DNA of 63,771 bases, the filler included, from Hausera hauseri (Eukaryota), in NCBI GenBank assembly GCA_046269625.1. It is 11 parts of 11 records of this genome, joined end to end, with 100 filler letters (N's around TTAATTAATTAA, not from the genome) between each part and the next. Parts side by side here need not be neighbours in the genome. Positions count along the whole stretch, not along the records: positions 27,322 to 31,582 come from JBJURY010670662.1; positions 31,683 to 41,025 come from JBJURY010402145.1; 9 more parts are not named here. One strand, written 5' to 3'. Below are positions 5,288-63,536 of this stretch, one piece after another (positions within the stretch are counted from its first letter, which is position 1; the number at the start of each line of letters is the position of its first letter). Both the position numbers and the translations under genes were made by a program. The notes below the pieces were generated by a model. It made no database searches, was not told the DNA's origin, and was given only the letters and a program-made list of their open reading frames with translations.

Positions 5288-5387
5288 NNNNNNNNNNNNN
5301 NNNNNNNNNNNNNNNNNNNNNNNNNNNNNNNTTAATTAATTAANNNNNNNNNNNNNNNNNNNNNNNNNNNNNNNNNNNNNNNNNNNN
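5288..5387. other. artificial 100-bp contig spacer; identical spacers at 10643-10742, 15306-15405, 21466-21565, 27222-27321, 31583-31682, 41026-41125, 46086-46185, 54565-54664 and 58668-58767
   Basis: Each is 44 N + TTAATTAATTAA (stops in all six frames) + 44 N. Confidence 0.99.
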
Positions 5388-21565: not shown

Positions 21566-22946
21566 GATAAGATAGGCGTGGATTTTGCAGGACCAATAAA
21601 TACCAAACAAAGGAGAGGAAATGTCCAAGAGAAGCGTTTTATCTGCCTTTTCACTTTTCTTGTTTGCAGACGAATACATTTAGAGTTATCCTCAGGTTTG
21701 GATACAGATTTTTTCATCCGAGCCCTCAAAAGGTTTATGTCAAGAAGGGAACGACCATCAATAATTGTATCAGACAATGGAACAAATTTTGTTGGAGCAG
21801 ATAAGGAGATTTATGAAATACAACCAGATAACCATTCAGCAAAATTAAATCTGGAACAAAACCACATACGATGGAGATTGAACCCTCCAAGCGCACCGCA
21901 TTTTGGTGGAGCCAATGAAGCGCTAATAAAATCAGTTAAAAGAGCACTGAATAAAATCCTGGGAGATGTTAGAGTCACCGATGAAGAACTATTAACTATA
22001 TTATGTGAGATTAAAGGAATAATAAATAGTAGACCACTCACAGTTTCATCAGCTGACAGTAAAGACGACATCATTCTCACACCTAACCACTTCATTATAG
22101 CCGGTTACAACTCCGAGATTAATTCAAATTTCACAGGTGCAACGAAGAGCAGCGTAACCGCACGATGGCGATACGTGCAGTCAATAAGTGATGAATATTG
22201 GAAAAGATGGAGAAAATAGTTGTTGATAACTTGAAGGACAAAGAAAAAATGGCAAAGTGGAGAAACCGACATTAATCCTGTAGATAGTGTGGGTACTAGA
22301 AACAGCGGAAAAAATGAATCATTGGCCAATAGTCAAGGTAACTAAGATATTTCCTGGACAAGATGGGATCGTACGAGTTGTTGAAATCTTGAAGAATGGT
22401 GAGATCTATCGGCGACCCATCAACAAAGTTTGTAAAGTAGAGAAAGAATTAAACGAGTGGAATGATTTAGAAAGAGTAAATAGTTGTGACCGGATTGCTC
22501 CAAGGAGGGGGAAATGTTGGAACCCAATTGTCTAGTTTGGCAATCCAGCCAATGTCGAGATGCGTAATGAGGTAAGTCGGACGAGCATAAAACTATATAT
22601 AGTGTAGATATTAAAGCGTGTGTATGGGCATGTAAATTTAGTGGGGTACGCGTATGATGATATATTATATGTTGTATATGTAAAAAATTTGTTTATCATA
22701 TTAATTTTTATTGGAGTAAGTTTGTCTGATGGAAATATTCTAATTGAAAATATAAGGATGTGAAACTTGAAAAAATGTACTGACTGATAGATAGATACAG
22801 CACCACCTTTGTCGGCGCTTGGGAAAACGGAGGATGGGAATCGGAGTAAATGAAAGACTCACCGATCTCTCATTAGTGAAGGTAGTTTACGAAAAGTTCG
22901 AGAAAGAAGTTTGAAAATATTCGAAAAGCGTAATAAAATTGTAACA
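21566..22946 (+). mobile_element. BEL/Pao LTR retrotransposon 3' end (integrase, PPT 22502-22514, probable 3' LTR 22515-22946)
   Basis: GVDFAGP, IVSDNGTNFVGA, PPSAPHFGG..E.LIKSVK, INSRPLT, LTPNHF, WP...V.K.FPGQDGIVRVV and RRPINKVC. The purine tract aaggagggggaaa precedes TGTTG, and the region ends aataaa...taaCA. Confidence 0.93.
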
Positions 22947-27221: not shown

Positions 27222-27394
27222 NNNNNNNNNNNNNNNNNNNNNNNNNNNNNNNNNNNNNNNNNNNNTTAATTAATTAANNNNNNNNNNNNNNNNNNNNNNN
27301 NNNNNNNNNNNNNNNNNNNNNAAAATATATTTAAAACATCTGCAAAAGACAATAACGATTGTTATACTCAAGACAAAACAAATAAAGCTACAAG

Positions 27395-27790
27395 TTATTC
27401 TTGTTCAATTGCCTCGTAATTTGGTGGTATCATCGTAATGCATTCAGCGGTTTCGAAATCTGATGCAGTCTTGCTGTGATGAATGCCGTATAAGAAATAG
27501 ATAAATAACCCTAAAAGCCAAATAGGTAATGTCAACTAAATTAAATATGATAACCTATTATTAGCCATATGACAAAACGAATCCAAGTCATTCCTGAAAG
27601 GTTGATTATCAACGTTATGTTCAGAAGGATTGTTAAAAGAGGAATAAAAGGAACAAATGGCACCTAGAAAACATTAAACAATTTCTTCTAGACTATTTAA
27701 AATAAACCTTAAAAGTTGTGAATTCGTCGTGTTGTTCAAATATTTTGAGTAGGAATATACAAAAAGACATTCCTAAAAACAACAAAAGGA
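27395..27790 (-). CDS. cationic amino-acid transporter (SLC7/CAT) C-terminal exons 27708-27790, 27555-27663, 27395-27510
   Basis: TFK|VPFVPFIPLLTILLNITLIINLSGMTWIRFVIWLIIG|LFIYFLYGIHHS is the CAT C-terminal signature. Two 44-nt GT-AG introns. The 5' part is cut off at about 27790. Confidence 0.9.
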
Positions 27791-28048
27791 GGTTGAATCA
27801 TGTCATCTGGACTGCGTTTTTTTTAAGAAAAGTTTAATCTTCTATCTGGAAGACTTTGTCTATCTGTGGCATAGCTACCAGCTCTGTCCCAGAAGCCCTT
27901 GGAAACAAGGGGCTTTAAGTAAAAAGTTTATTTTCTCATTCATCCAGGTAGATAACAACAATAAAAGTTGAATCATGTCATCTGGACTGTGATTTTTTGT
28001 TAAAAAGAAATGTTTCGTCTCTCATCCAAGAGACTTTGTCAATCTGAG
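27791..28048 (-). repeat. two tandem Penelope-pLTR-like units (about 180-nt period) with degenerate hammerhead cores at 27826-27865 and 28006-28045
   Basis: gttgaatcatgtcatctggactg is repeated at 27792 and 27967. The minus strand reads ...gtctct tggatg agagac GAAAC...gtccag...acctggatgaatgagaa. Confidence 0.7.
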
Positions 28049-28128
28049 GGGCTTTAGGCTTTATTTTGACACCAGGGTTAGGGTTCCAACGCTGTCCTCT
28101 CAGTGGTGCGTAGTTTTATTTGTTTTTA

Positions 28129-31100
28129 TTATTCATCTAACCACTCCAGATCCAGTCCTTCACCACAGAAAGACTTCCTTTGGACCCCATAATCAAAGCG
28201 GATCTCTTCGTTTACTGAAATGTCTTTCATTGCCTTAAACAAGATTACATGCCTTTCCCCTTGAGGGAACTGCATAAGGCAATGCACTGGCCTAACGTTG
28301 GGATTCTTTCTGGAGTGGTTGAGTTTTCTTCCAATTGTTTCAATGTCTGGGTGGCACTTGCATGGAAATGTCTGGGCGTCTATGCATAATTTCTGGCCCC
28401 CAGACGAGAAAAAGAAAAGGTAATACATGTTGTCCTTTATGGATTTCAGGATCTGCTCTCCCTCCACTGCTGTAATCACCGTTCCATGGTAATCACATAC
28501 GATGGAACCTTTGATAAATCTTTTAGTGGCAACAACCCCTATGGTGAAAATAAGATCACAAAAAATGTGCATGATTAGAATATGGCCTGTTGGAAATATT
28601 TTGACAGCAGTCTTGATTCTCAATTATTCACAAATCCGTGAAGGGTACATACCTTGTCCTTTGTCATCAGGAAAATGTTGTATCGACAGACCGGACCACT
28701 TCTGCACTGTGACCAACTTGATCAAACGTGGATCACTCTCCACAGTTGTTTTTGGGGCTGGACTCCATTTTGCCACTATGTCCTCTGGCCTGGGATGGTT
28801 GGCAGTCCACCCCTCCTTGGTGATGTCTTTTAAAACAATTTTTAGGCAAGGGGGACGCCTTGTGTATTTAGCTGTAACAACAAGATTTATATTACTCACA
28901 ATGTATGTCCAGAAAGGCCATTTACGGTATTCACATAAGTAGATTTTACTTACAAAACAGATGTTCTTCCCTCTTTGCATACTGGAGTGCCCTCCACTTG
29001 TCATATGAGATCCGGTCCTTAGAGAACCCAGCTTGAACCCTCTGCTTTTTTGTTGGTGGCTGGCCAGCTAGAGTTACTGGAAAGGACTTCAGAAATGCTG
29101 CAAAATCTTCTTGTGGCTCACTTTCGTCAAATTCTCGGTGCCTTTTCTGTGCCCTAGTATGCCTCTCATCACTAGACCCTTCAGAACTGCACACAAACAA
29201 AATTTTAAGGTGAAACATTGAAAACCAGATGCACAAAACTTTGAAGAAGTTGAGAGGGTCCTCACAGCAGCATCATAAAAAGTGAACAATTAAAAGAAAT
29301 ATAATGCATATATACTACGTGTCAATTATTGCACAATGCACACATTCTCCTCTGGTGGTTTCTGTACAACTGCTGTTCTGCAGCTTTCACTCTGTGGGGG
29401 AGGATTGTGGTTGGAGAACTAGGGTTCACATATTAGTCTAATGTGTGCAGATCCAGGCACATACCTTTCCAAGGCACCGATCAAATTGATGGCGAGCACA
29501 GATGTTGATGGGGCCCTCATCCTATAGTGTGCATCAGCAACAGCTGTGGAATGGGCCATATAATGTGCAACATGCTTCTTATCTTCCTCTGTGAGATTTT
29601 GGTTAGCCAGTGTTTCTACAACTCTGCGTACTTCCTGGCTAGTCACATTTGACAACTTGTAGCTGCAATGAGCCAGAAAAATAAAACAAATTAAACCTAT
29701 ATTCTCCTGATGTGCACAGTAAATTTACTAATTTCATTCATACTTACTGTTGGTGCAGACGGTAAAGGTCCTGGGTGGCACTTCTAATGGGTCGTCCATT
29801 AGAATTAATAAAAAATCGGTCCTCCTCTTCTCCAGAGTCTTTTACACATTCGGAGCGAATGTGCCTGTAGTATGTGTCTAGCATCTGTGGAGACAAAATA
29901 TGAATGAAGTTAACTCTCGTGGGATGATTTATGGTAGTATCAATATAAAGCCATGCTAGTTTGTTAGAAAACTTACTGCATCCTCCTCCATGGACAGGGC
30001 AAATGTAGCAATCTGCATTGTTGCTGTCTTATGGCTGCTGACACCTATGACAAGTCTGCCATCACAGTTCTTTCTGTTAAGCCATTCTGAAACCTAGGAA
30101 TCATTGAAGGACAGTGCACATTGTTTATCTGAACAACATGTATACCTTTGTCAACCTTCTAAACTCTGTCCACTGACAAACAGCTGAAAACTGTGCATGA
30201 AGAGTACTTACTGTAAATCCTTCTACCACTCCTGGTCGTTGAAAGTGGTTCAGAATGAGGATCCCTTCACAATAGTAGCGGTACAAGGTTCTCTCCTCAG
30301 ATGACAGTTGCTCCTCTGTTAGGTCTTTTGCGTAAATGCCAAGCATGTCTTTCTTGGCCTCACGCATCAGTCTCTGACAGTCATGCAGGCTTCGCTGGCC
30401 CTCAACATAACGGTCATATCTATTAGAAGAACAAATGCAAAAGTGAATTAGTCTTCTATATCACACATTCTCTTCTGCCCAGTAGACACATAGGTCACAT
30501 AAACAGTGAATAAGCCTTTAAAATATTAAATGGTAGCGTTAAACTAATAACAGACCTGATTTTACATGAAACCCTGCTGTGCTCCTTAGCCATTGGTTTC
30601 CTTAAAGTCCCAAGTAGGTCAACATAGGCCTGGCATTTCCGACTGTACTCCAGGTCCCCCGTAGTGACATACAGGTAAGTGCTCAAAAAGTTTACAAAAC
30701 GGATCATGTTCTTGATGTAGTTTAAAATGGTGGCTGGAGCCATCTTGGCCATCTTGAGGGTTCTGATGAAATCACTTGTTTCGGTGTATTTGGAGAGAAA
30801 GTCCAGGTTGATGTCGTCTCCACAGGGCTGAATGTATCTCAGCATCCTGGACACATTGTCAACCTACAGTGTAAAATGAAAAGCAGTATGAGAGATGTCA
30901 TTAGTGCTTTGATTATGCATATACATACAGATTAGATGGGAACTATATGGCCATGACAGTGGAGAGTTATTAGCTTCTTTTTTTGTCTGTTTCACAAAGA
31001 GATGTTTCAGTCACATGACTGAAACAGGATCTGTTTTTGTTTTTCAACTTTCACAGGAAAGATGAAATATAAACAGCTCTTTATTTGCTCTGTACATCAA

Positions 31101-31336
31101 CTGCTTGTAATTGTAATGGTGTAAGTGTGATCATGCAGAAAGATCAGGCTTGACGCACTTTTTGATTATAAAACATTGGGTTAAATCTTACCTCCTGTTG
31201 ACAGTTTGGGACCAGCAGTGAACTTCTTAGGTGGTCCTTGAATAGCACCAGAAGAGTTGATTCACTAGGGAACTTTTCATACAGCCCCATGTTTTTCATA
31301 GTAAGCCTTACTCCTGTATGGCCTGAAGAGATTGGT
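28129..31336 (-). CDS. spliced tyrosine recombinase-SET domain (KMT5A-like) fusion protein, 5'-partial, teleost-like sequence
   Basis: GT-AG exons 31192-31336, 30556-30863, 30212-30419, 29977-30093, 29748-29884, 29465-29662, about 28953-29187, about 28652-28871 and 28129-28539. YR motifs FQRPG, HKT, EVRR and YMAHS...AHY. SET motifs KGQGVVAT...CDYHG, KLNHS and EEIRFDYG. No stops were seen in the exons. Confidence 0.85.
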
Positions 31337-31427
31337 CTGAGAAGAAACAAACAGAAAATAATCTAAAAAAGCTAAGTCTGGTCCTCTGGACATTCAAAAA
31401 CAAAACAAAGCAAAAAAATAAAATAGT

Positions 31428-31467
31428 AGAAACGTTTCGTCTTTCGTCCGAAAGACTTCCTCAGTCT
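31428..31467 (-). ncRNA. minimal type I hammerhead ribozyme (Penelope-type, dimer-dependent)
   Basis: AGA-CUGAGGA-A-GUCUUU-cggacg-AAAGAC-GAAA-CGU-U-UCU: intact core, stem II, palindromic ACGU stem III, GUU cleavage triplet and AGA/UCU stem I. Confidence 0.75.
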
Positions 31468-32229
31468 GAGATGCTGTATTCAGCTCAGTCTTATAAATAG
31501 CACCCTCTCACAGTGGATCAACCAGTTTGCTGCTGACAGCCAAAACCAGCTGCTCACATGATCAAGGAGGACCATCAGCCTANNNNNNNNNNNNNNNNNN
31601 NNNNNNNNNNNNNNNNNNNNNNNNNNTTAATTAATTAANNNNNNNNNNNNNNNNNNNNNNNNNNNNNNNNNNNNNNNNNNNNCGGTACGGGAACTCCTGC
31701 AACGGAGTCGCTTTATACGACACTTGGTCGGGCTGGAGAGAGATGATCCATATTCTCTCTCAGCAAGCACGCTCCATCGGTTTTACCAGGATGGAGATAA
31801 CCGTCGTCTCTTCGATTCGTCGGTTTTTCTACCGGTATTCCTACGACTAATGGCGGCAACCGATCGACTATATGAATAGCTGGTTCCATCGGAGAGCCAG
31901 CTGATTTCTGACCATCGAGCCACTCACAAGCGGACGGTTATGACAGTGAGCTCCTGCCTAGACAATGTTTCCACACCACTCCGTCGCCTCCGGCTGGAGC
32001 CGGAAAAACTTGAACCAGCATCAACGGATTCCAGTTCAAACGACATTCCAACTTGCTCGCGCCGGAATCAGAGGATTAACGTGGCCCTTTCCTCAACCGA
32101 GGATTCGTATGCCTCGGCGGACGAAATAATGATTAAACAAAATAAGCGTTCGGACTTTTATTTGTTCCTTATTTTGTTCGTCCTTCATCATGTGTTTTAT
32201 TTTAATAACTTTGTAAAACACAAACTCAC

Positions 32230-35200
32230 TAAACTGCTAATCCATGTACGGATGAAAACGTCAGATATAGTATTGGTATTTGTTATCCGCAGAGGGATGG
32301 CTTCTGACCATCGCGAGGAACGGTCCATCATGGTGAGAATGAATTGATGGCTGTTGTCTGGAGGAAGAGGGCCAACGATGTCAATATGCACAAATTCGAA
32401 ACGCGATGTGCAGGAAAGTGGAACAGTGGTGGCTTTAAATGCTTAGTTGTTTTGTATTTTTGTCAAGCCACACACTCCTTACCACATGCCTACACATCGG
32501 AACGCACTGACGGCCAAACTACTTGTCAGTGGACTAAACGAAAAGTGGCTTTAACACCGTGGTGACGTAACGAATGTACGCTGTTGAATGCTTGCCTTTG
32601 CAACGATGGTGCTAGAATTATTAGGGAATAACCTAGTTTGGAAGTGTCTAAAGCCACGCCGTCAACGATTCTGCAAGACTTGAAAGAATTAAGTATTTCC
32701 TGATGTGGCTGGTTTTTTTGAAGTTGTGCTTGAGTAAATATTGGTGAAAAATTAATCGAACTTACTGACCTAGATAAAACGTCGGCAACCAAATTATTAA
32801 CCCAATTAATATGTTTTATGTCAAAGTTATATGTCGACAAGTATAATATCTGTCGTTCTTAGTGTGTGGCAGGATGTTTCATAGCCATGATGTTAAGTAA
32901 GGGCTTGTGATCGGTTTGTATAGTAAAATGACGAACGAAAAGTAGGTTGGAGAAATGCTTTAAAGCGAGAATGATAGCCAATAATTCACGATCGAACGTT
33001 GAATATCTAGTTTCAGGGGATGTTAGCATACCAGAAAAAAATTCTAGCGGTTGATTTTCTCCTTTGTGGATTTGGTGGAGTACAGCACCTACTGCAGTGG
33101 TTGAAGCGTCTGTTGTAAAAATGAGTTCCGCGTCAGGCTGGGGGAAAGCGGGAATGTCGACGGTTTTCATTCCTTCGCGTAGCCTATCAAACTTGTCAAC
33201 CAATTCAGGTGTCCACTGTATTGGCTGATGATTTTTGCCGCCGCTTAAGTGTGAAAATGGTGCTGTCAATTCAAAGAAATTTAGTACATATTTATGTACG
33301 AAGTGTAGTGTACCAAGGAAGCTGCGCATTTCAGTGGTCATACGTAAAAACTGGATATTTTTAAGGGCTTCAACTCGGTCTGGTTGAGAAGAGTGGCCGT
33401 CTGGTGAAATAATGTGGCCTAAAAAGTTGAGGAGTTTTTTGAAGAAATAAGATTTGTCAAAATTGACTTGGAGATTATGGTGGTTAAAGCGTTGTAAAAT
33501 TGCGCGAAGGTGTTCTTCATGTTGTTTGGCCGAAGACGAAACAATCAGAATATCATCAGTGTAAAAATGAGCAAACCCAAAATCTGAGAGAATTGAGTCG
33601 ATGTGCCGTTGAAGAATTGGTGTGGCATTTCGTAAACCGAATGACATAAACAGGTACTCACAGAGGTCAAAAGGAGTGGTGACAGCAATCTTTTTTATAT
33701 CTTTGGGTGCAAATGGTATTTGACGGTATGCTTTGGCCAAATTAATGGTCGAATAAATTGTGGTTGAATTAAGACAATGCAAGATTTCCTTGATGAGTGG
33801 TAGGGGTTACAAATCCATAATTGTCACGTTGTTAAACTGTCTGTAATCATCGCATGGTCTAAAAGTTCTGTCCTTTTTTGTACGACATGTAAAGGTGATG
33901 ACCAAGGAGATTGGAACAGCGTACAATGTCGGAGCGTTCTAGTTCAAGAAATTCTGCTTCTACGGCCTGCCTACGACGAGGTGACAGTGGTCGTACCTTT
34001 TGGCGTATCGGTCGATGATGTTGTGTAACTATGTGGTGTAAAGTACTGTTTGCAGGAGTAGACGTACCATCTTTTTTAAGTACGCATGAACATGCTGTGT
34101 AGAAGAATTGCTGTAAAGTTGTAGGCAAGTGTGAGAGATTCGGTGATGATAATGAAACAGCTTGAGTAGTAGCGGATGCAATTTGTGAATTGTTTACTGA
34201 TGTAAAGTCAGTGGGTGTTTGGTGTAAGATGGTCAAATTAAGAATGGTGTGGGATGAAGTGATTTCTTCGAGTGAATTAACGTTGGTGACAGTACCACAA
34301 TTAACGACATCGAACCTCGACTGAATGTCAATATTATGATTTAAAAATTTACGAAATGAATTATTGTTATGGAAATTCGAATTATTTATTGATTTACTCA
34401 AAATTGACCCCCGCGTCCCGATTGACTGCGTGGTAGTCGAAATGTTATTTATATGCTCAGTAATGCTGCCAATGATGCCGCTCCTCAGACATTGTTGACT
34501 GCAGTCAACCAATAAATTATAATGCAATAGAAAATCGGATTCTAGAATTGCCGTCTGGACGTTAGCAACTGTGAACGTCTAGTGGAAAGGTGAAGGAAAT
34601 TTTGGTAAGATAAAAGATAGTTTAGCCATGCCAGAAATGTGCAGCGGTTGGCCTGAAGCGATGTATAAGAGCTTAATTCTGAATGGTGAATTTTGTACAG
34701 GAAAGGTTTTTGGTAATAAAGAAATTGCTGCATCTGTATCGATGAGGAAATTAACAAATTGCGTTGTAGCAGCGGTGATTGCAGCCTTTAGAGTAAAGAC
34801 AGCAAAGGAGGCGTGTCGGCATTTAGCAGGTGAAGCAGTGCCTTTTCCAGACTTTGCCGTGACTTTTGGCGGCAAACTTAGTTTTTTTAAAAAGGTGAAA
34901 TAGGACGACTATTAGAAGAAAAGGTAGCACGTCCGTCATTTGTATCTGTTTCGAAAGTGAAGTCTGGAATGCATTTACGACCTTGATTTTTAATCTTTGC
35001 GTGGTAGATACAAACAATAGTGTCTGAAAAAAACTTTTATTAGAATATTTTCACCCTAGGCAGAATTTTTGGCACTTTTATTGAATCTGCTGTGATAATA
35101 GCAGATAGACGACGGCGCAGGTGATGGTGACCGGTTTCTAGAAGCAGAATGGGCGCGGTCAGCGACAAAATCGTTTTTTCGGGACAGGAAAGTTAATTTA

Positions 35201-36030
35201 ACTTGTTGTTTATATTGTTAATTGTTGCTTGTAGTGTTGTATTTTCGGCACGTAACTGATTTATTTGTCACTCTATTGATGTGTTGTTGTTTTGGATACC
35301 GGTAGCAGCAACTGCCACAGTAACGATTGGTGGGGAGTTCATGTGTAGAACGTCGTGTGTTTTGTTTTCTAAGTCGGCGAATTTTTCAAGAGCCATGGAG
35401 TCCTTAACCACGGTCCGTAGAGCCCGAGTTTGGATATGTAACGCGTTGAGGAAGTAGTATCGCAGTCGTTGTGGATTATGTTCTTTAGTGACGCCGACAG
35501 TGTGTAGATGTGCTAAAGAAGTGCGTAGAAAGACTGATGGTCGTTGTGTACCTATAGCGTTGTCGTGAAAGAAGCGTTGTATGATCGTGTCCATTGAGGG
35601 TTCTGTGGTTTTAAGAACAGCGTTGAAGAACTCTGAATATGGTCCGTAAGTTCAAAGATTTCATGGATTTTGTGAATTCGTGTTTTGATATTGTTAGGAA
35701 GTAAGAAGAAGATGTTGTGTGCTTTAGTTAAAGTATCGGTAACGCTATTGGCATGTAGCTACAGTTGGCGGAATTGCAACCACGTTTTGCTGAAGCCTTG
35801 GTTGTCAAGAAAGAATTCAGTGCAGTGAGGGAAAGTGACGGAAGAAGTCATAGACGAAGAGTTATTAGCAGAAGTATGGGTGGATTTTTGAAGCCGTATG
35901 ACAGATTTTGGTTTCGTGGTGGTTTAATCCGTGGTGTCTATGGATGGTGATGAATTCATGCCACCACAGACGCGGAAGTGTATATTGAGGTGGATATAAT
36001 TTGAAGAAGATTGCAGGGTTCCAGCGATAG
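32230..36030 (-). mobile_element. CsRn1-like Ty3/gypsy copy 2 (end of Ubl, gag, PR, RT, RNase H, N-terminal half of integrase; degenerate)
   Basis: HFRVCGG|MNSSP; FLIDTDA; FYTDDILI; TDASTTAVGAVLHQ; RYSTFDRELLAI; HIDIVGPLP...DRSSRW. Confidence 0.95.
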
Positions 36031-36520
36031 GTATTCTAGAGCCGTTGTGCGTATTGCAACGTATTTTAATCCTAATTTTGTGCTGAGTATTAGCGGACCT
36101 TCGTTACTGAGATTCAGCATTATTTTCGATATCAGCATGTACTTCAGAGCAACTGTTGTTTTTATTGTGTCAGATGAATCATAACCTTCAAATGCTTCAT
36201 AAAAAACTAGTACGCCGTTTTAAAATATCTTTCGTCGGCAGCATGCAAAAGTCCACATGGGATATCTAACGATGTCTGTAACTTCGGTGGACGATAAATT
36301 CGATTCGCTGTTGTTTGAGAAGATGTCAACGCAACTTTTTCACGATAAATATTATTCAAATTTTGACGAAGTTAATTTCGTCTTTCAGATTTTTTCCATT
36401 CAATTACTTCTTTAATAACGTAAATTTCCTTGGCGGTTTTAACTTCCACATCCAAATAAAATTAACTAGAGCACGAACCAATTTTCTAGCTTTTTACTGT
36501 GGAATTTTTGAGTAAGATAG
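36031..36520 (-). pseudogene. PSMD11: 26S proteasome lid subunit RPN6 fragment, intronless and internally deleted
   Basis: KARKLVRALV...IEWKKSERR*LRQNL / [23 protein letters not shown]...[24 protein letters not shown]...ALKYMLISKIMLN...KLGLKY. Confidence 0.9.
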
Positions 36521-36550
36521 GAGAAATTATAAAATTTTCGAGGGAGAAAA

Positions 36551-36644
36551 TAAGGCCCGACTTTGTGTCTGATGCGGCGATAGAGGACGCCCGGCCGTGA
36601 CCAACCAAATTGAACAAAGGGCACCGGCCGAGGTGGGCACAACA
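36551..36644 (-). mobile_element. 5' end of the CsRn1-like family LTR
   Basis: The reverse complement (TGTTGTGCCCACCTCGGCCGGTGCCCTTTG...) matches the LTR starting at 54368 after the PPT. Confidence 0.8.
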
Positions 36645-39350
36645 AAGTTATTTGGGCGTCACTCCCACAAACAATGACGACCTTCTTCTTCGGTATTTTC
36701 TTTCTTCCTTATCCACCTCCATCAAAGCGTTGCTTACTGTCGTAGACAATTCAACGGCACTTGAAAAACTCGCCTTATTGGCGGATAAAAATTTCGACAT
36801 CTTACAATCAGACAACTCACAATCAGTAGCAGCAACCGCTTGTACGCCATCACACGCAGATAACACTTTATTTTCATAACAATCGCACATTTTGCAAAAG
36901 CAACTTGACACATTGCAACAATCAATTTCTGCGGTTACGGCCAAACTTAGCAATTTAACCGTGTTCTGACGAGGTGAAACGTGGGTTTCGTACGATCGTA
37001 GCCTTTCCCAGCATTTCTTTCGATCCAAATCTGGAGATGCAGAAATTAAATGTTTTTATCACAATAAATTCCGCAGCGACGCAAAGAAATATCTTCTGGG
37101 TTGTCGATTTTACGACAAACTTTATGAAGTAGACAGCCCCATCTGCATTCACCACACAAAATATCAATCTAAGGCTAGATCATGTGTGCCGTGGTGCATA
37201 TATTATAAACAACAAGTCCAACTTTCCCTACTTTTCCTCTCCTCTTCCATCTTTCCGTTCTTCCTTTTCTCTTCAACACCAAAAAAACCAATAACGCCAC
37301 CAGATGACACGGCACACTCTGGCATTAGCAATACCTTTCAATCCTCTGGCCGTTTCAGCAGCACCTCTGCGGTCTTTCTGTTAAAGCTGCACTGTTATTT
37401 GGAGACACCTCACATATCGACTTTCTTATAGATTCAGGAGCTGCCTTTTCGTTACTTCTCTTGTCCTTCATTCCGATATCGACTATAACTTCCTGTCTAC
37501 CGCTCTTTACAGCCAGTGGGCAACCGCTACACACTTCAGGAACCAGGGAACTAATTTTCACGTTCGGCAACTCGCCAGATAAGTTTGTCTGGAAGTTAAA
37601 TGTGGCAAATATTAAATCCCCCATAATCGGTTCAGATTTTCTGCCCGCACATTATCTGCTATTTGATTGCAAGTATCGCTGTCTGATGCGCAGAGACTCC
37701 GTCGTGGATGCCAACAAATATCTACCAAATAGTCCAATAGAAACTTCGTTGTTTTCGGTTGTCAACTTGCGTGTGAATTTAAAAACTTGTTCGTCGGCTA
37801 ATAACGGTACATTTAATAATTTATCCATTTATTCCATTACGTCAAAAGCATCTAAGTCGGTTTTAAAACAACCGAATAAACGGAGTGTTGATGGTGACAG
37901 TTACGGTTGTTCTTCGCCAATACCATCTACTGTTGCTTCTGATGATATGTCTCAATCATTCTCATCGCTGGATTCCAATCTCAAATCCTGTCACAACTTC
38001 CCTCTTCCGCACCCTCAAAAAGGACGTCAACTTCAAGCCGCCTTCTACAACTTATCACCACATAATCACCGAACACCAAAGACCTACCAGACAAAAGGTC
38101 AGACCAATGTCACATCGTGGGCGAAAAACCATTGAATCAGAATTCAATGAACTCGAAAAGGCTGGAATCATTTGAAGATCAAAATCACCGTAGGCTTCAC
38201 CATTGCACGTAGTAACAAAGAAAGATGACACTTACAGATCATGTGGTGAATATCGGCAATTAAACAATCCAACAGCCTTGGATACTTACCCTTCACCTCG
38301 CGTAAACGACATTCTGCAAACTCTTACCAATACTAATACGTACTCCACAATTGATTTTCAAAAAGCTTATCATCAAATTTCAGTTGAACCTGATGATATT
38401 CCAAAAACTGCTGTTATTACTCCATTTGGCCTCTATAAATATATTTTTATGCCATTTGATTTATCTAGCGCTTCCCAAACTTTTCAACGACACATTGATG
38501 CCGTTCTTTCAGGCCTTGATTTTGCTCATCCATACATTGATAACACAATTTTAACTCCAACTTTACAAAAGCCAGCCTTCCTTCATACGCATTCATTCCA
38601 TTATCCGGTTTCGAAAGCAACCTTTCGCCTGCTTCAACGTCATGTAGTTTGGCCATCAAAGCGCAAAGATGTACAGGGCTGGATTAAGGAATGCGTAGCC
38701 TGTTAAAAATACAAAATCAACAAACAACTTAAACCGCCGCTTTACCGTTTCCCCATTACATCACGTTTTCATACGGTTTATCTTGATCTCGTTAGTCTTG
38801 TACCTTCTGACAACGGATGTCAACATGTCCTTACTATGATGGATCGTGCTTCTCGCTGGCCTGAAACTGTTCCTTTTCGTTCAACGAATACTGATTCAGT
38901 AGCCGACGCTTTTATAAAAATCTGGATCAGTAGTTTTGGTTCCCCACGTAGATAATAACGGACCAAGGTCCGCAATTTGAGTCGGAACTCTTCAAATCAC
39001 TTGCTAAATGCTTGGCAATATTCTATTTCCATACAACACTATATCATCCTCAAGCGAATGGCCTTCTCGAAAGGTTCTATCGAACATTGAAAATTTATTT
39101 AAAAATCTTGGCTGACAATCATCGTAATTGGACGTCAATTGTGCCATTTGTTTAACTACGGTGGCGCAACACACCTTCAAACACTACCTGTTGTGTTTCA
39201 GCCGAGGCACTCTTTGAGACTCCAATTCGGGCTTTATTTGAACTTACTGATCTCGACGACAACCCCACAGACAAAAACATTCGTGCAGCACAATCTCACT
39301 TCGTCGAGGTCAGCTCAGACTCCTTCTGCCGTCCCTTTAACAATTACAAA
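36645..39350 (+). mobile_element. CsRn1-like Ty3/gypsy copy 3 (gag, PR, RT, integrase; RNase H deleted)
   Basis: LLRYFLSSL...STALEKLA; two CHCC knuckles; FLIDSGA; PYIDN joined directly to the integrase Zn-binding region at about 38545; TDQGPQFES; HPQANGLLERF. Confidence 0.93.
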
Positions 39351-41025: not shown

Positions 41026-42261
41026 NNNNNNNNNNNNNNNNNNNNNNNNNNNNNNNNNNNNNNNNNNNNTTAATTAATTAANNNNNNNNNNNNNNNNNNN
41101 NNNNNNNNNNNNNNNNNNNNNNNNNGCATATAACAAAAGCTCAGCTAAAGCTAAATCTAAGCTAGCAAACAGAGTGTGGAAAGGTTCTTACCGCGAGCAG
41201 ATGATGGGTGATCAGAGCGTCTTTGAGTGCACCATTTGAGCACAATTAGCACGCAGCGCCAGCGAACGCCAAGGTCTGAACCGGGAGGCACACAAACTGA
41301 TGTCAACTAGGTGAGGGAGGCCCCTTTTTATACCGACGCCAGCGCCACAGCCAATCAGAATCAGGCACACATGTGGTGCGTTCAGGACCTATGGGCCTAC
41401 TGCCACATTCATTTGTTTATACCTAAGCAATCAAGAATAAATAATAACAGTCTTAATAAAAATTGCCAGATTTTTGCCATTTACCATGACTAGTTAAGCC
41501 TACACAACTCTATGTACAAACTCAGATTTTTACATTATCTATCTTACTCACTTATTCCTAACATAAATTCCATTCTGTTTTCCAATCCATAAAAATCATG
41601 TCACTGCATTTAAATTTTTCTGTGATGACTAAAAATAATGCATTTATGTGATGCTGAGGTGTGGCATGGAAGGGAAAAATACTCAGAAAAAAACTTGTAG
41701 TTCCATACACAAGTATTTATTTGTACCTTTTTTCAGCACAGCATGGTTCATCTCTCTCACACACAAAATGGCAACTCTCTATATATATGGTTGTCCCCGC
41801 CTTCTCAATCATCCTTCCAGCCAATCAAACTCAAGAAAACATGGCAGCTCTCTATATGAGAGCTAGGTTTGAGGCGGGCCTCCTCTTTAGGTGTTCCAAG
41901 ATGGCCTCCGTAAGGACACACCCAACAGGTAAACAGCATTTAACAAACAAAAGAATCACTGGCATACACTCTAGAATTTACACATTACAAAAATTATTGC
42001 TTCACAACACCAACTTAATTTATCATTTAAATAGCACATGACTTGTACTGAGAACCACAGCAATAAATCAATATGTGTGAGAAATGTATTAAAACTTATT
42101 AAAACTTGTTTTATTTGGAGCCTTAAGTTTTTGTAAAGGTGTAGCAGAGATTAGATCTGTGACTCTGATACAAACTCAGATCTAAACATTTGAATCATAG
42201 TTTGACTTCTTGGGTCTCAGCAGGTTGTTTACTGAGAAACACTTTTGTTATTCATTGCTGC

Positions 42262-43406
42262 CAGTGATGGCAAAGTTACTTTGAAAAAGTAACTTTAATC
42301 AGATTACTGACTACTCTTTGAAAAAGTAACTTAGTTAGATTACTGACTACTTTTTTTGGAAAGTAACTAAGTTACATTGAAAGTAACTTTTTAGTTACTT
42401 TCAGCTGCTGCTGACAGCAACGCTCCACCACCTTTGAAAATTACTTTAAGCTTTGCCAATACTTAATTGCAAGTTGTTTTATAATTCTAACATTAACAAT
42501 ATATTTCCACTTATAAGGTTGAACTGAAGGGAGATTGTTTAATGGTTACAACAATACAAAAAATATCGTAATTTGTGTGTTCCACTATTGTCTGGAAAAC
42601 AAGCCCCCAGCCCCCCCTGCCCCAGCCTCCAGGTTCTGCGTTACGGCCCTGCGTTTGTTGTCATAGCGCATGCGCACAGAGATCCTCCTGCGGCTCCACA
42701 ACTCAGATGTCCTTCTGCACAGATTTGTGACGCCTATCTTAACATTAATTATTATAATGGCGTTTAGTTGCACAACTTTACGGTTCACGTTCATTCGTGG
42801 CTGTTTTCACATTTATTGCGCGGCTCATATTAGTCTCGATGTTTGCAGTTTTCTGGAGCGCAGCGCGAAGCTCGACGTCATTCACAGCAAATATGTGAAC
42901 ATTAACAAGAAACAGCGGGACGGATCATCTGGGAAATGATAGACAAGGAGAGTCTGACGTAAACGACCTTAATGACAGACACATTCTGGGATTTATTACG
43001 AGTCTCTGCTTATTTCCAAGCTCAAATGAGTAACTTCGTTGAGAAACGAGCGCATCTCCCGATTCATTAAATGTGCAAGCGACTTTAGAAACAAAACAAG
43101 CCCAAAGCCGCTTATAATAATCGGACTTGGCGACAGAAACTCAAAATAGTTCCTGTTTTTCCAGCAACGAAATGCGCGTCTCGCTTCTCCCTCCATTGTT
43201 CACATTTCTGTCGCTGCTGATAAAGAAACGGCGGTCGCTCCCCAAGACGCGTAAAGGAAATAAAAGATCACAGTAACGCAAAGTAACGCAAGGGGATTTT
43301 GTTAAGTAACTTTAATCTGATTACTGGATTTGAAATAGCAACGCGTTAGATTACTCGTTACTGAAAAAAGTGCTCCGACGTCAGTAACGCGTTACGGACA
43401 TCACTG
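42262..43406. mobile_element. non-autonomous hAT-like DNA transposon (teleost type)
   Basis: Termini CAGTGATG...CATCACTG, with subterminal arrays of gtaac/gttac/gattact motifs at both ends. No clean TSD. Confidence 0.7.
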
Positions 43407-44256
43407 CATGACATGAGTTGACCAATGACTGAAGCAGATGACCTGCTCCACTTCCACATCCACTGATGATAATACATTGTGGAAATAGTGAGTTCATAAT
43501 AGTGACTTGATCAGAAAATGACCTTCAACCATCTAATATTTAGACAGAAATTAAGGAATCTGTGTCTGATTATATGTTGGTTTTCTGTATGAAAACAATT
43601 GATAGAAACACATTTTGTTATTGTTTTAGAAAAATTAGTTTCTGATGTCCATGATCAGCCTCATTATAGATTTCATGGATTTGTATGACAGAAATTTTGA
43701 CATCCTTGAAAAATATGTTGATTTGTTTTGCATTTTAAAATCAAACACGACTTGTGGAGTGTTCTGAATTTGTGAGGAAAAGTTAATGTAAAAATGAGGT
43801 TTTTAATCTGGGATTTATATGTTGCAAATTGAAGTTTTATTTCCACAATGTTCATCTTGTTTTAAACTCACGTTTTGTTTTTACGGCAGGGGGTCAGCCG
43901 GGCCCACAGTCGCCAGCACCGGAATACAACATGGCCGCTCATGGAGGAGAACGCATCCTGCTTAACCTGCTAACGCCGCTGCTTAGGTCTGATGTTTGTC
44001 ATCACCTTGATCATCAGCCAGATTGTAATTCAGGTGAAAATTGGAGAAAATGCCTTGGAATATGTGCTGATTTATGGGAATTTTTACTGTTACTTGGATT
44101 TTTATTGTTTGCCACAAGTCCTTTGTGTTCCTGCATTCTTTGCTGAGAGTCATTTTTCTGCCTAGGTTTCTAAGTTAGAGGCCTGGCTGTTAACAGAGCT
44201 GTCTGAGTCTCCTCTGCACTCAGAGCAGGTGGAGTGTGTCATTTTTAAGAAGTGAG

Positions 44257-44281
44257 ATGTGTGTGTGTGTGTGTGTGTGTG
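44257..44281. repeat. (GT)n microsatellite
   Basis: Directly visible. Confidence 0.95.
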
Positions 44282-44818
44282 GACAGGAACTACAGGGACT
44301 CCGCCCCTGCTGCCATGACGACACAAGAAAAGACAAAGTGACTAAATTACTGCAGATGACCTGCATTCAAATACTGCATAAAAAATACTTTGATTAAGAT
44401 TGAAATAATTTCTATATATCTACATCATATATCTATATCGCATGTCATGTGACTATTAAAGGTTTAGTGACGCAGATTGCCGTCAGTAAAAACAATAACC
44501 TGCTCTTACAGGCCCAGTCTTTCTCTACTGCCCCCTCTCTTCCCTAGGGGGCAGTAGAGAGCAACATGTTGGCGCTGGGAGGAGAGCGAGAAAAGTGTCC
44601 GGTTGTTGTGGGGAGCGCAGTGTGTTAGTTTTAGGGAGCTGTCCAGCTGTTCAAAAGAGGAATAAAGTTCTTAAAGCATTCATCTGCCTCCTCCTTGCTT
44701 TTGCCCGCCAGCGCAGCAGAACCGAAACAAGTTTGTTACCAACGAACGAGCCGATAGAGACACCAGCCCGTTTAAAACCAGCCTCTGATTGGCCTCTGCG
44801 CTGCACTGTGAGGCTCGT

Positions 44819-45227
44819 TGTGACGCCCTGCCGTGTGGCAATTGCTTGCCATTTAAGGTCCTTAATTGTGGCAGGTTAACCTTAAATGGCAAGCAAAACC
44901 TGCCACCTGGTTTGGATTTAAGGAGAGAGATCCCAGGCTGATGAGGCTGGCAGAGAGGTCCAGACGAGAGGACCCAGTCCAGAGAGTGGACACCAGGCCC
45001 AGAGGAGGGTTCCAGCCTCAAGGGAGACACCAGGCTCAGGAGGGAGAGATCCGGACCCAGAGGCGGAGCTGGAGCCGGAGCTTGACACGTTGTGGGAGCC
45101 GACGCCCGTTGACTCGTTGGGCTGCCCCCCACTTCCCTAGACATCATGTCTAAGGAAGTCCACAACCAGCTGTGGTTGTCGTGTCCTCCCTGTTCCTTGT
45201 TGCGGCCATCCGATCCGGGCCGCAACA
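44819..45227. mobile_element. possible solo LTR (TGT...ACA, GC-rich)
   Basis: Starts TGTGACG and ends CGCAACA, with an internal 18-bp inverted repeat. No TSD. Confidence 0.4.
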
Positions 45228-46788
45228 ATCGACCAACCAAGAAAATGATTAGTGACCAAATGATCGCAGAAGCTCTACATTCAAGGACTCTGGTTCAGGC
45301 GGCGATTGACGTCAATCTGTGACGTGTGATTCGGGGTTTGAGCTTGCCATCCGAGGATCACGTCACCAATGACCAGCTGAGCCAATCAGGTGCAGGCAAC
45401 GCACAGGCTTTATTACCTACAGTATTTGAATGTAGGCTTTCATTTTTTAGTCTTAAAGTTTAATTATTATACAGGTGACGGATTTCAATTAAAATAAGCC
45501 ATTAACAGTTTATGCAATTAAATTATAAACCATACAAGTGGTTAATAATACTTGTATAACCTGTAAAGTAAATATACTTTATATATCTACACCTACACAT
45601 AGTTGATAAGCCCCGTCACTAAGATTTTATGTAATACATTTTTTTTGTAATTATACATTTTAGAAACTGTTAGTATATTTGGGTTTTTGTTTTTGCAATT
45701 ATTGAAAGAAATAAGACAAAGTGACAAAATTATCAGAGAATCTAAAGACTGTCAATAAATCCGCGATGTAGATCTAAATATCTATTTCTACATATCTATA
45801 TCACATGTCCTACAGATTCATCACATGACATTATATAGCTATATATCATATAGGCAATCTAGTCACATGATACAGCTGAGCCAATCAGAGTCGCTTATCC
45901 TCCTTTTCATGCAGGCCTTTAAATAAAGACCCGGACAAAAAAATTCTCTTTTCATCCTGCATTGTGAAGCTCGCCAATTTAAGAAAGGATAACCAATCTT
46001 TATTGGCTTTTCTCTTTTTTTTTTTTCTTTTTTTTTTTTCAGTCTTCCCCGGATGAACCCTGCAAACAATCCCGGCCAAATGGTCNNNNNNNNNNNNNNN
46101 NNNNNNNNNNNNNNNNNNNNNNNNNNNNNTTAATTAATTAANNNNNNNNNNNNNNNNNNNNNNNNNNNNNNNNNNNNNNNNNNNNAATTGGACACAGTCT
46201 ATTTTCCCACTGCATATTTCATTTGTGAGCCGTTTAATTTCAGCTTCTAAATCTATTTTGTAGTTCTAAGTATATAAATGATTTCGGATAACAGATTTAA
46301 AAACATACCATTTGTCGTACTATTCCTTGAAACAACGCCATGCGATTTTAAAGGCCTATATTTATACTCGATCACCAAAATTAAAACAAAAGGGGGTGGG
46401 AATAATGATACCTAATCTGCGCCAGAAAATTCTTTGTTCACAACCAAAATGTAAACAATTTTTTTACGCGCCAAATTAAAATTTTTACAGATACCTAAAA
46501 TCCATGCAGTTCGCGTGCTTGTGTGTATCCACTTTGTGACTGTTTGTCTCCTATCTCCGCCCTATAAACCGTGTGTGCGTGTATAATTTTCCTACACCAT
46601 GACTCATCTCCGAACCAGAAAAATTTTCTTACCCCTGGGGGGGGGTTTGGCGCACTGGACTAACATCCTACTACTACAATCTTACACAGATTGCTCAAAA
46701 CTATTTTAGATCAGATAAGTGCTTATCGGAAATCGACCAAGAAACTAACAATTGTCAGAAACTTTTCGAGGTTGTTTGGTGGGACAAT

Positions 46789-48764: not shown

Positions 48765-51700
48765 TGGTTGCCCCGCAGTTTGCGGCCCGTCACAGCGAGG
48801 CTGAAGCCCCGGCCGCCCACCCTATACCATTGGGTCATATAGCACCGGTCGTTGCCACCCCAAGATACGCCCCGCCACACGACCTCTCCTTATTTCCTAT
48901 TCTTTTTCTTAAATAACAAACACATATGCACAAATGCAGTAACACATTTAAACACGGCGGGAATTTATAACTTCATCCCAACTCTTCTTTACACACCAGA
49001 CTTTTACCTCATATATTACGGCGCCACGGTAACTCTCGTTGGAAATCTGCAACCCTCTTCCAGCTGTATTCACCTTCACATTCACTTTAGCATGCGTGAT
49101 GGCATGGATTCACCACCCGCTATTGATATCACGGACAAACCCACCAAACCAGTGATCTTTATCACTTACTTACCCAAACAAAGTGCCTCAAATACGTCGA
49201 CACAGCACACACTCCCCACTCATTAACCACGCACAGAATACTTCCTTGACAGCCAAAATTCTACTAAAAATGGTTAAAACTTCATCAATTCTGGTTTCAA
49301 TCACAAAACGTTGTCGATCCCTTATCCAAAGCCAACAGCCTGTTTTTTCATTTACCTGCTTTCATCAAAACAAAAATCACAAATATCATTGACATTCTTC
49401 AGCATGCCGATCTATATGCTCAACTTTATAATTCTATTCTTAAGCTCACTGAGCCGTCAATTTACTCTATCATTCAAAGATTGTTCAATGACAACGCAAT
49501 GGGCCTACATAAGCCTTTTGAATTTTTGCGCACATCTTTGTCTCACCTCAATACCCTTGGCGTAACATCCGAGCATAGTCCAAAACGTCTTCGTCGTTAC
49601 TTTTTAAATGCATTGCCCCTTCAAATAAGAGTTTTGCTAACCGTGGTCAAAGACTCCACGGCACTGGAAAAGCTAGACAAACTGGCGGACAAAGCCTATG
49701 AAGTATTGCACTCACACATAACACCCGCTGTCTCTGCTGCATTAGCAACAAACCAACTACAACAAAATGCAATATTGCAGCAGCAAATTGCGCAATTACG
49801 CACGGAAAATGAAATGTTGCAAAAAACAATTAACAACATAAACGACAAATCAAATGAGTTAACGCTGCCTCGACGGGGTTTTCTAGGGCTGCTTCCCCTA
49901 ATGTATTTAATTAACGTCATAGACGGTCGCCTTCGCCCGCACGGTTGTCAATTTGCTACTACCACAACAAATTTGGTAATAATGCTCAGAAATGCCTCAT
50001 CGTTTGAAAATTTTATTTCCACAATTTTAATACAAGCAACATCGTTTGCATCCATAACTCGAAATTTGGAACAAAAGCACAAACATGCCTACCTGGCTGT
50101 AACTACAAAACGTACAATAAAATTAACACCATTAAACCCACACAAAACAGTAGGCCAAACTCACCAGATACAAAAAACTGATCTCGCCGCTAGGAGACAC
50201 GGCAAGCTCTAGCAAAAGCGACAACCTACAAAAAAATATCCGACACATTTTTTTTCTGTATTCACGTTAAAAGCGGCAGTCGTCACTTCAACAAAGCAAA
50301 ACCTTAACTTTCTCATAAACACCGGCGCCGCAATCTCTTTACTACCACAAACATAGCACATACAAAACAATTTCACTTCAAAAAAGCAACTGTTCACAGC
50401 GTCCGGTGAACCTTTACAAACTTTTGGAGTTACTAAATTACCTTTCACACTTCGAAATGTCCCAAACGCATTTACATGGAAATTTACAGTAGCCAATGTA
50501 CGCACACCTATACTGGGTTCAGACTTTCTGTCTCACTACAATTTACTTGTAGACTGCAAACGATGTTCCTTAAAGAGCGGAAATAATTTTAATCAAATTA
50601 GCATCATTTCGGTGACCACCCGGGAGATCGCTTCCAGCAAGTTAATACTAAAGAAAACGACTTCCGATTTAAATTATTTTTATAATCAATCATTATACAG
50701 AAATTTTTATTACGGCAACAAATACGATATTGCCAACAGCGTGACACCTATTACTGATACTACGTCTGCCAACACCATCTTCAACACGAACATCCTGCAC
50801 CAAATACCACTTTGTCACAACACCTTGTCCACACATTATACCTCAACTGCATCCAGTCACGATGCATCAACAACGCCTAATAACTTTTCATCATTGCCCT
50901 ATTACTTACAGCAATATATTTCGTCTTCCTGCACGCGTCTGTTGCAAAAAGACAAACCATTCGTACCACCTCAATCCACCTTCCATCACATAGTAACAGC
51001 ACATCAAAGACCAATATGGCAAAAGGTCTGCCCGCTATCGCCTCGCCGCAGACAGGCAGTAGAGGCTAAGTTTCTTAAACTGAAAAGATCAGGAATAATC
51101 AGAAGATCCAAATCCCCTTGGTATTCACCACTGCATGCGGTTCCAAAAAAGATAATACCTTTCGCCCATGCGGTGATTACCGCCAACTCAACACCATAAC
51201 AACAATGGATACCTAACCTCTACCATTAATCAACAATATCCTTCACAGGCTCCATGGTTCGACCATCATTTTCTGCATTGATTGACACAAAGCATACCAC
51301 TAAATTTCGGTGGCCCCAACAGACATTCCGAAAACGGCTGTCATTACACCTTTCGGCTTTTTCAAATACCTTTTCATTCCCTTTAAACTCCATAGCGCTT
51401 CTCAGACCTTCCAAAGGCATATTGATACAGTTCTTTCAGGTTTCGGCTTTGCTTATCCCTATAACGATGATATCCTCATTGCATCATATTCGTCAATACA
51501 ACACTCCGAACACTTACGTTTAATCTTCCAGCGCTTGCACCAAAACAACTTTCAAGTTAATTTCTCCAAATTATCCTTTTTTCAACATAAGGTCAACTTC
51601 CTAGGACATGTCATTAGCTCCTCCGGATGTTCACCTTAGCCAGAGCTCATCACACAGCTCAAAAACACACAACTACCACGTACATCAACAGAGATGCTTT

Positions 51701-58667: not shown

Positions 58668-58767
58668 NNNNNNNNNNNNNNNNNNNNNNNNNNNNNNNNN
58701 NNNNNNNNNNNTTAATTAATTAANNNNNNNNNNNNNNNNNNNNNNNNNNNNNNNNNNNNNNNNNNNN

Positions 58768-59348
58768 TGCACACAATTCTGTTTCCGTTTCCGTAAGAAA
58801 ACCAATTCCTGTTGTATGAGAGTAAAAGAATGATTCAGTCTTTTACCAGTTCACTGTAATATCGGTAGTTTCCGCAGTGGAAAAGTTCAATTTTTCACTA
58901 ATTATACTATATCCACCGAGATGTATACCTTTCGAGCGCACATTGGCAGATTATTGAAACCCCATGCCTGAGCGTCGGCTAGTCATTTAAATTGCAATTC
59001 AATCGGATGATTGTGTTTTAGCATCAATTTATTGTTTAAATGGAAAATATAAACCGGGAAATATTGTCGCTTGTAATTGCGAACGTCAAATGTTCCATTA
59101 GAGTCTCGGACTAACTGCAAACGACTAGATGCAAAAGATTGTCTTACTAGGGTATAGTATATTCCGCTGTTCTCACGTATTGTTATTAATGAAAATGTAA
59201 ACGTGAATTCCACCAAAGCCATTTCCCAGGCTCTCTGGCGTAAGTCGAGCGGCTGGTCCAACGCCATGGTAAACCGTTCAGCGGTATTGTTGTTGTTGTC
59301 ATGTTCTGATAATCTGTTACTACCAAGTATCAAATAAATGCTCATCAC
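58768..59348 (-). pseudogene. Polinton minor capsid (penton) protein, N-terminal part
   Basis: MSIYLILGSN...NNTAERFTMALDQPLDL...WEMALVEF matches the penton FY+.L.SN...N....F...L..P+.L...WEV.L.E pattern. It overlaps the integrase stop. Confidence 0.8.
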
Positions 59349-60381: not shown

Positions 60382-60489
60382 TGCAACAATTTGAACGAAA
60401 CGTAAATGAAAGATTCGGTAAACTGGGACAAAATGAAAATCATGCACCCAAATCGCCGAATCATCATATACTCACCGTAATTGTTTATC

Positions 60490-61017: not shown

Positions 61018-61021
61018 TTTA

Positions 61022-61677: not shown

Positions 61678-61764
61678 CTAAATAATAATNNNNNNNNNNC
61701 ACCACATGATTTGTTTATAATCGTGTTACACGCATATAAATATCTACAGTATAAACACATTCCA

Positions 61765-62251: not shown

Positions 62252-62298
62252 CAACAAACTAGAAATATCATTCTCATGCTTATTCAGACATTACTGCC

Positions 62299-63490: not shown

Positions 63491-63536
63491 ATACTCAAAC
63501 ACACATATAAATAGGTGCAGCGTGAACACTATTTCA

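Follow-up and report, generated by a model that had tools for sequence, protein, structure and literature searches.

The question raised by this locus is whether the hammerhead-type repeats lying around a gene for a tyrosine recombinase (YR) fused to a SET domain mark the ends of a mobile unit that carries the gene, or whether they reached it separately. The window analysed is the whole stretch of 63,771 nucleotides (nt) from Hausera hauseri (assembly GCA_046269625.1), joined from several records with filler, and the gene, called here YR-SET, is in one contig of it (27322-31582), on the minus strand. The initial annotation proposed that three hammerhead repeats bracket the gene, which could therefore be cargo of a Penelope-like element (PLE) or a Terminon, and that their dyads could alternatively be recombinase sites. 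With a probability of about 0.7, the repeats are instead separate fragments of Penelope pseudo-long terminal repeats (pLTRs) riding in a multicopy YR-SET gene, neither cargo termini nor recombinase sites.

Three sense-strand (minus) hammerhead copies are indeed present, at 31467-31428 (copy 1), 28045-28006 (copy 2) and 27865-27826 (copy 3). Copy 1 has the intact core (CUGAGGA/GAAA) first described and is a complete minimal type-I hammerhead (31428-31467), with stem I AGA/UCU, a C3-G8 pair in the core, an extra A after A9, a 7-bp stem II, GAA, a palindromic ACGU and a GUU cleavage triplet, the cut being predicted after GUU at 31431. It fits all the features of PLE minimal hammerheads (CUGANGA...GAAA, stem II of 7-8 bp, G10.1-C11.1, palindromic 15.2-16.2, NUH) and is the sole CUGANGA-type descriptor match in the window, such matches arising 0.01 times per simulated window (100 simulations). 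It is part of a pLTR-like 3' fragment of a high-copy repeat (31360-31582, minus strand), to which contigs of the repeat family align, with loose ends at 31360, and which runs off the end of the contig, 115 nt upstream of copy 1 (the linker starts at 31583).

Copy 2 is a short pLTR fragment with a long tail (27918-28046, minus strand), located just 3' of the stop codon and of three AATAAA signals. It has a core UUGACAA, a 7-bp stem II, an intact GAAA and a helix III with ACAU instead of ACGU; matches of this type with a stem II of at least 6 bp arise 0.04 times per simulated window. Its core had been described as altered and the letters are correct, but the change is a compensatory variant (U3-A8) rather than a simple alteration, so that both the 3-8 core pair and the GAAA of a PLE minimal hammerhead are there. 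Replacement of C3-G8 by U3-A8 is a covariation reported for PLE hammerheads of Schistosoma (PMC4209133). Copy 3 is a decayed pLTR fragment with a short tail (27774-27888, minus strand) whose hammerhead remnant has U3/A8 as in copy 2 and does not satisfy the descriptor; its core is altered, as had been claimed, by U4>A, and in addition by G12>U (UAAA in place of GAAA), which had been missed. The covariation reported in stem II is real in the letters, with two double-sided changes, but it is weak as a statistic and not significant alone with three sequences: double-sided changes affect 3 of 11 pairs in a 46-column alignment (two in stem II and the 3-8 core pair), and 49 of 500 shuffles reach that. 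An Rfam search of the window gave no match at E up to 5, and therefore a relaxed hammerhead descriptor was needed; the folding z-scores of the three copies (-0.14 to -1.28) are not significant. Their identity as minimal PLE-type hammerheads, which is supported by the anatomy, the descriptor matches and PMC4209133, is consistent with the minimal hammerheads of this architecture described from the Xena, Poseidon and Neptune PLEs of fish, mostly as dispersed single motifs (PMC4209133), and from this anatomy and literature we infer that the repeats derive from PLEs.

Judged from its letters, copy 1 is plausibly the only copy that could cleave. The helix III palindrome, which a dimer would use, is missing in copy 2 (ACAU) and copy 3 (ACUU); all four helix-III positions pair only between two molecules of copy 1, and copies 1 and 2 could form no clean dimer helix, their combination having a C-A mismatch. 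A single minimal hammerhead motif gave no cleavage (PMC4209133), and the PLE hammerhead of Anolis cleaves only with the PLE protein and is dispensable for insertion (PMC11167929). We infer little or no self-cleavage by the copies, because a minimal hammerhead on its own depends on a partner or on the PLE protein, because of the mismatch between copies 1 and 2, and because some core bases are lost in copy 3.

The abundance of the repeats was apparent from assembled sequencing runs. Twenty-four runs match part of the contig, four of them at half or more, with no RNA run among the 24; the runs X2 to X5 were compared, and X1 (0.97 share) was left out as the possible source sample. The aligned contigs numbered 12260 in X2, 10467 in X3 and 10027 in X4, with the depth piled on the two repeat zones, and the gene was spanned by just 2-3 long contigs per run; the repeats therefore represent a very abundant dispersed family. 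In each of X2-X4, a consensus built from the loose ends of 108-130 family contigs has the canonical CUGAAGA core. Patterns made from the repeat DNA gave no match in viral contigs, one in metagenome contigs and three in genome contigs; the loci inspected (L001, L003 and L004; L002 covers the same contig range as L001) have no hammerhead and consist of bacterial-coding-like DNA.

The copies themselves are not alike enough to be a pair of ends. Copies 1 and 2 are identical at 40 of 51 positions (78%), with different core pairs, and the other two comparisons give 31/51 and 32/51, which makes them too unlike for the long terminal repeat (LTR) pair of a young unit. The distance from a common GTCCAGA motif to the end is 32 nt in copy 1, about 39 nt in copy 3 and 65-70 nt in copy 2, so that the tail ends differ by about 30-38 nt, matching the optional PLE tail of 30-40 bp that results from two reverse transcriptase (RT) start sites in Anolis Poseidon (PMC11167929; PMC8557442). 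A high-copy dispersed family with a variable tail of 30-40 nt is what PLE fragments would be expected to show. Copy 2 is furthermore flanked by an exact 10-bp direct repeat, TAAAGCCCCT (28047-28056 and 27908-27917, minus strand), which is a candidate target-site duplication; a shared repeat of at least 10 bp was found in 4 of up to 3000 random pairs of 40-nt windows. The match of X5 breaks 5 nt before the second TAAAGCCCCT copy, which a duplication around copy 2 does not explain. An imperfect inverted repeat (27893-27915) lies between copies 2 and 3 and overlaps the second TAAAGCCCCT. A simple recent duplication of copy 2 was considered as the origin of copy 3 and rejected: copy 3 is far more decayed and has an upstream likeness to copy 1 that is absent in copy 2.

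These fragments would thus be ends of a very abundant Penelope-like pLTR that inserted separately within one YR-SET copy, in an intron and at the 3' end. The route may have been target-primed reverse transcription initiated internally, and this would account for the different distances from GTCCAGA to the end, 32-39 nt in copies 1 and 3 and 65-70 nt in copy 2. The hammerhead fragments would then travel with YR-SET as passengers, and the amplification of YR-SET would be due not to them but to its own recombinase or to unequal crossing-over.

The site of copy 1 can be compared in X4. A 1811-nt contig of this run (record 20), its sole cover over exon 1 among the matches listed, matches 30170-31369 with 4 differences in 1200 nt (99.7%) and then runs 611 nt beyond 31369 in sequence unlike the window; over the gene as a whole X4 differs at 8 positions across three contigs (1189, 1011 and 1200 aligned nt). 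The contigs of X2 and X3 end 25 nt inside the copy 1 repeat, as expected at a high-copy repeat, which record 20 does not. Among the matches listed, copy 1 is absent at the equivalent X4 site, because record 20 continues unbroken past 31369 with unrelated sequence. Contigs drop rare variants, and the X4 state does not distinguish gain from loss of copy 1. The initial annotation had itself named homologous loci lacking the repeats as the observation that would count against cargo, and this contig is such a locus. Further down the gene, X5 (record 24) has the last exon joined to copy 2 and its match ends at 27923, with 14 nt left over; a loose end of X4 falls at the same place, which hints weakly that copy 2 is not followed by copy 3 in these two runs.

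The proposal that the repeats are the termini of a PLE or Terminon with YR-SET as cargo is accordingly weakened. It would have a PLE transduce the gene's 3' part, with PLE reverse transcription then amplifying everything between and including copies 1 and 3; possibly copy 1 would act as a promoter, with a TATA-like TATTTATAA at 31499-31491 and a truncated protein starting from the Met at 31299. All three copies being on the sense strand, and PLEs being known to retain introns (PMC4209133), agree with it, as do the identity of the stretch 27795-31384 in X2 and X3 and the depth of the gene contigs (116-175), taken as a hint. However, the gene occurs in X4 without copy 1, near-identical terminal repeats at homologous loci were not found (copies 1 and 2 share 40/51, with different cores, and form no LTR pair), copy 2 is flanked by its own duplication, and decay has gone furthest in copy 3, which would be one terminus. 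Homologues lie in tandem clusters that lack RT, and in a domain scan of 60 relatives, chosen for length among 150 matches listed, RT or GIY-YIG was found in none (0/60). Such transduction is unlikely, and that PLE ends define an amplified YR-SET unit in this lineage is just as doubtful.

Several observations weigh against separate insertion and should be stated together. X2 and X3 have no difference from the window over 27795-31384, a stretch that takes in copies 2 and 3 and reaches into the end of copy 1, and the contigs of the gene are deep (116-175 versus 6-21 for most other contigs listed in X2 and X3; about 50 versus 16-23 in X4). Contig depth is a hint and not a copy number, but it hints at several near-identical copies of the gene, repeats included, in X2 and X3, and a tandem array with passengers and a PLE-bounded unit would both explain it. 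X2 and X3 probably reflect one fish genome, because they show no difference from the window and have other identical contigs in common. All four runs have copy 2 attached to the last exon (X2, X3, X4, where the match reaches 28020, and X5), and copy 2 keeps a perfect stem II and the compensatory 3-8 pair. Three same-sense copies within 3.8 kb are apparently more than uniform scatter would give. No PLE body was recovered in pattern scans of viral, metagenome and genome contigs; scans for an open reading frame (ORF) with RT and GIY-YIG gave no match or only bacterial chance matches, the contig stopping 115 nt upstream of copy 1. The comparison of loci took in close relatives only (runs differing by less than 0.3%), and record 20 of X4 could have another piece beyond the matches listed. 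Finally, a chimeric join at the 3' flank is possible, as discussed below, and therefore the 3' end beyond copy 3 is uncertain.

The conservation of copy 2 could also be read as co-option after independent arrival, with copy 2 serving in 3'-end processing, or copy 1 cleaving the pre-mRNA together with PLE RNA or protein and so tying YR-SET expression to PLE activity. Copy 2 does lie 14 nt past the third AATAAA, with stem II and the 3-8 pair kept, it is joined to the gene in 4/4 runs, and the PLE hammerhead of Anolis depends on added PLE protein for cleavage (PMC11167929). But ACAU disrupts its helix III, copy 1 is missing in X4, and runs that differ by less than 0.3% need no selection to share a feature, which leaves co-option slightly less credible than cargo.

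The composition of the contig bears on both its origin and its 3' end. Its ratio of observed to expected CpG (o/e) is 0.33, and that of the other window pieces is 0.99-1.29 in ten and 0.64 in one, so that it looks like fish-type DNA amid non-vertebrate-like contigs, because the named relatives of its protein are from fish and frogs. The piece with partial depletion (41126-46085, o/e 0.64) is possibly vertebrate-derived too. The 3' flank (27322-27790) has a non-vertebrate-like composition, with CpG o/e 0.93 and GC 30%, versus CpG o/e 0.28 in the gene (Poisson P 0.001). It is almost without cover in X2-X5, and the contig minus this flank corresponds to the word share of 0.89 that X2 and X3 have; as a gap in cover is no proof, the flank was not used as an element boundary. 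The junction where copy 3 ends, between this AT-rich, CpG-undepleted flank and CpG-depleted DNA, is possibly a chimeric assembly join; a very recent transfer into the other organism is less likely.

This change of CpG signature beyond copy 3 also fits the idea that copy 1 or copy 3 is a rearrangement, a duplication breakpoint or an assembly join at a pre-existing PLE copy, and so does the 10-nt stretch 31369-31360, covered by both the X4 gene contig and the repeat-family alignments. The ends coincide, though, with PLE tail positions, and contigs of X2 and X3 bridge the copy 1 junction with 15 identical nt (to 31384), so that it is no artefact of the present assembly; such a rearrangement is improbable, marginally more so than co-option.

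The least probable of these proposals, to which very little weight is given, is that the stem II dyads are binding sites of the encoded recombinase. The visible exons are flanked by dyads with 7-bp arms, but YR sites typically have arms of 11-13 bp and a spacer of 6-8 bp (PMC3212892), compared with 7-bp arms and a 4-nt loop here; moreover, the dyads belong to a genome-wide repeat family, vary between copies and are lacking with copy 1 in X4, all of which weakens this part of the initial annotation. The intron that follows the first visible exon contains a perfect dyad at 31003-31026, its 11-bp arms separated by 2 nt; on its letters it is a better candidate for protein binding than the hammerhead stems, or may be the remnant of a miniature inverted-repeat transposable element.

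The YR-SET gene (28129-31336, minus strand) has nine exons, with eight GT-AG introns and a 657-aa open frame from which the N-terminal part of the family is missing. Exons 1-5 are at 31336-31192, 30863-30556, 30419-30212, 30093-29977 and 29884-29748, and exons 6-9 at 29662-29465, 29186-28954, 28871-28653 and 28538-28129. The protein is 49-64% identical to the longest teleost matches, and full-length homologues, of about 800 aa, have about 140-165 extra N-terminal residues that include a Cys/His motif. Copy 1 therefore likely sits in an internal intron of YR-SET, since the homologues extend that much further, and the repeats, contrary to what had been supposed, do not bracket the gene as a whole: these residues are missing from the visible frame, and the contig ends 115 nt past copy 1.

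The model of a homologue (P0044, 83-row alignment; not the window protein) has a pLDDT of 90.6, and all the PDB matches listed in its fold search are Cre, Xer or integrases (Cre, XerH, XerA, Tn1549 and lambda; best E 3.2e-4). An Atlas search with another homologue, P0005, gave TM 0.62-0.69 to named Phage_integrase rows. According to these models the family has a Cre/Xer-type tyrosine recombinase fold, with core-binding and catalytic parts. A model of full length had a low pLDDT (55.7), and a fold search with it matched nothing; PDB sequence searches gave the SET domain alone among the matches listed. The motif residues, assigned by motif and not by superposition, occur in the 83-row alignment as R in 53/82, K in 57/74, R in 71/79, H in 48/72 and Y in 44/57; the window protein retains R, K, R, H and Y, and the H of HxxR is replaced in the family, mostly by Q. 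The C-terminal domain (Pfam SET, E 1.1e-11) is by sequence closest to SETD8/KMT5A, the best PDB matches being SETD8 (E 5e-15), and keeps the SET motifs NHS and FDY. In the cyprinid relatives P0001, P0005 and P0008 the C-termini have THS and FNH in place of these motifs, and the methyltransferase may be altered.

A profile search found 853 clusters at 50% identity (E up to 1e-10), some of which may be SET-only matches. SET was found in 31 of the 60 long relatives and KRAB in 3; an N-terminal KRAB box is fused to P0092, P0096 (Bufo bufo) and P0098, and frog relatives in Hyperolius and Dendrobates have SET and no KRAB match. Locus tags show tandem clusters of near-identical copies across several fish (homologues P0031, P0172, P0005, P0017 and P0042). 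In Dissostichus, a single 311-kb contig bears six YR-SET models, of which one, 3363 aa long, comprises about three units head to tail; Carassius has four consecutive loci on a 153-kb scaffold, and Anabas and Knipowitschia have adjacent pairs. Identical proteins occur at separate loci in Girardinichthys, and the C-terminal part of P0172 (Dissostichus) has a second, different YR-like stretch after the array, suggesting a neighbouring YR gene. Genomic loci around relatives were confirmed in none of the pattern matches in viral contigs (372 and 11) or metagenome contigs (311).

The multicopy YR-SET gene is itself likely a mobile element. A more specific proposal, rated at a little short of even odds, is that it is an undescribed vertebrate YR mobile element with its own SETD8-like (H4K20) methyltransferase, forming head-to-tail tandem arrays via recombinase-made circles and having gained KRAB in some relatives (one of them in a toad). 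A literature search, which also covered links between hammerheads and YRs, found no YR-SET element described, and Repbase, Dfam, subscription papers and supplements may already hold the family; no YR fused to SET is described in the available parts of PMC6431247, PMC3212892, PMC11162782, PMC10680173, PMC13565253, PMC5753468, PMC8557442 and bioRxiv 10.64898/2026.07.22.740005. As PLE hammerheads are already known, the value of follow-up lies in this family: should it be mobile and have an active SET domain, it would represent a transposon of vertebrates that encodes a histone writer and marks its own chromatin.

Other parts of the window contain, by eye, decayed ORFs of Gypsy-type LTR retrotransposons (protease, RT, RNase H and integrase; 5340-7352, 32200-39000, 49268-53612 and 56828-58715) and a BEL-type integrase (21566-22535). 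ORFs at 58768-63771, again judged by eye, resemble an integrase with a chromodomain, a packaging ATPase and a piece of DNA polymerase B and presumably belong to a Polinton-like element, and the broken minus-strand ORFs at 8393-10559 we take to resemble a divergent anaphase-promoting complex subunit 1.

Cryptons, which like the YR-SET gene have spliceosomal introns, are among the known systems closest to this locus. These YR DNA transposons (PMC3212892) also resemble it in having a YR with catalytic-type residues, in being multicopy and in having no RT. Unlike them, YR-SET has the N-terminal Cys/His motif, the C-terminal SETD8-like domain, tandem clusters and, in some relatives, KRAB fusions. 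Repbase CryptonV is only named, in a table, in the literature consulted. Terminons and Athena (PMC6431247) have hammerheads near host-type genes, as here, and differ in that the window is without RT and without a reverse-complement telomeric repeat directly 3' of a hammerhead. The only telomere-like sequence is the 12-nt AACCCTAACCCT (28074-28085), which is upstream of copy 2, between it and the stop codon, and may be chance.

Non-LTR retrozymes (bioRxiv 10.64898/2026.07.22.740005; PMC7229834) also have PLE-derived type I hammerheads, and copies 2 and 3 are 180 nt apart. These two copies are, however, 63-74% alike, with an unrelated spacer and one broken core, and there is no tandem of intact units, a retrozyme being defined by two or more tandem units in succession, each with a complete hammerhead (bioRxiv 10.64898/2026.07.22.740005). 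The Poseidon PLE PAc of Anolis (PMC11167929) resembles the window copies in an AT-rich junction and in having a 3' end at either of two places past the hammerhead, about 30-40 nt from each other, and differs by an ORF start in stem II, where the window copies have no ATG. The minimal hammerheads in the pLTRs of the fish PLEs Xena, Poseidon and Neptune (Cervera and de la Pena 2014, PMC4209133) differ in that copies 2 and 3 are without the palindrome and that no ORF with RT and endonuclease was recovered here. They are alike in the long stem II, the short stem I, the extra base after A9, the palindromic 15.2-16.2, the U3-A8 pair (in Schistosoma there) and the dispersed solo motifs. The hammerheads around YR-SET are nothing unusual in fish genomes; mostly they illustrate how readily abundant PLE ends mimic the termini of an element.

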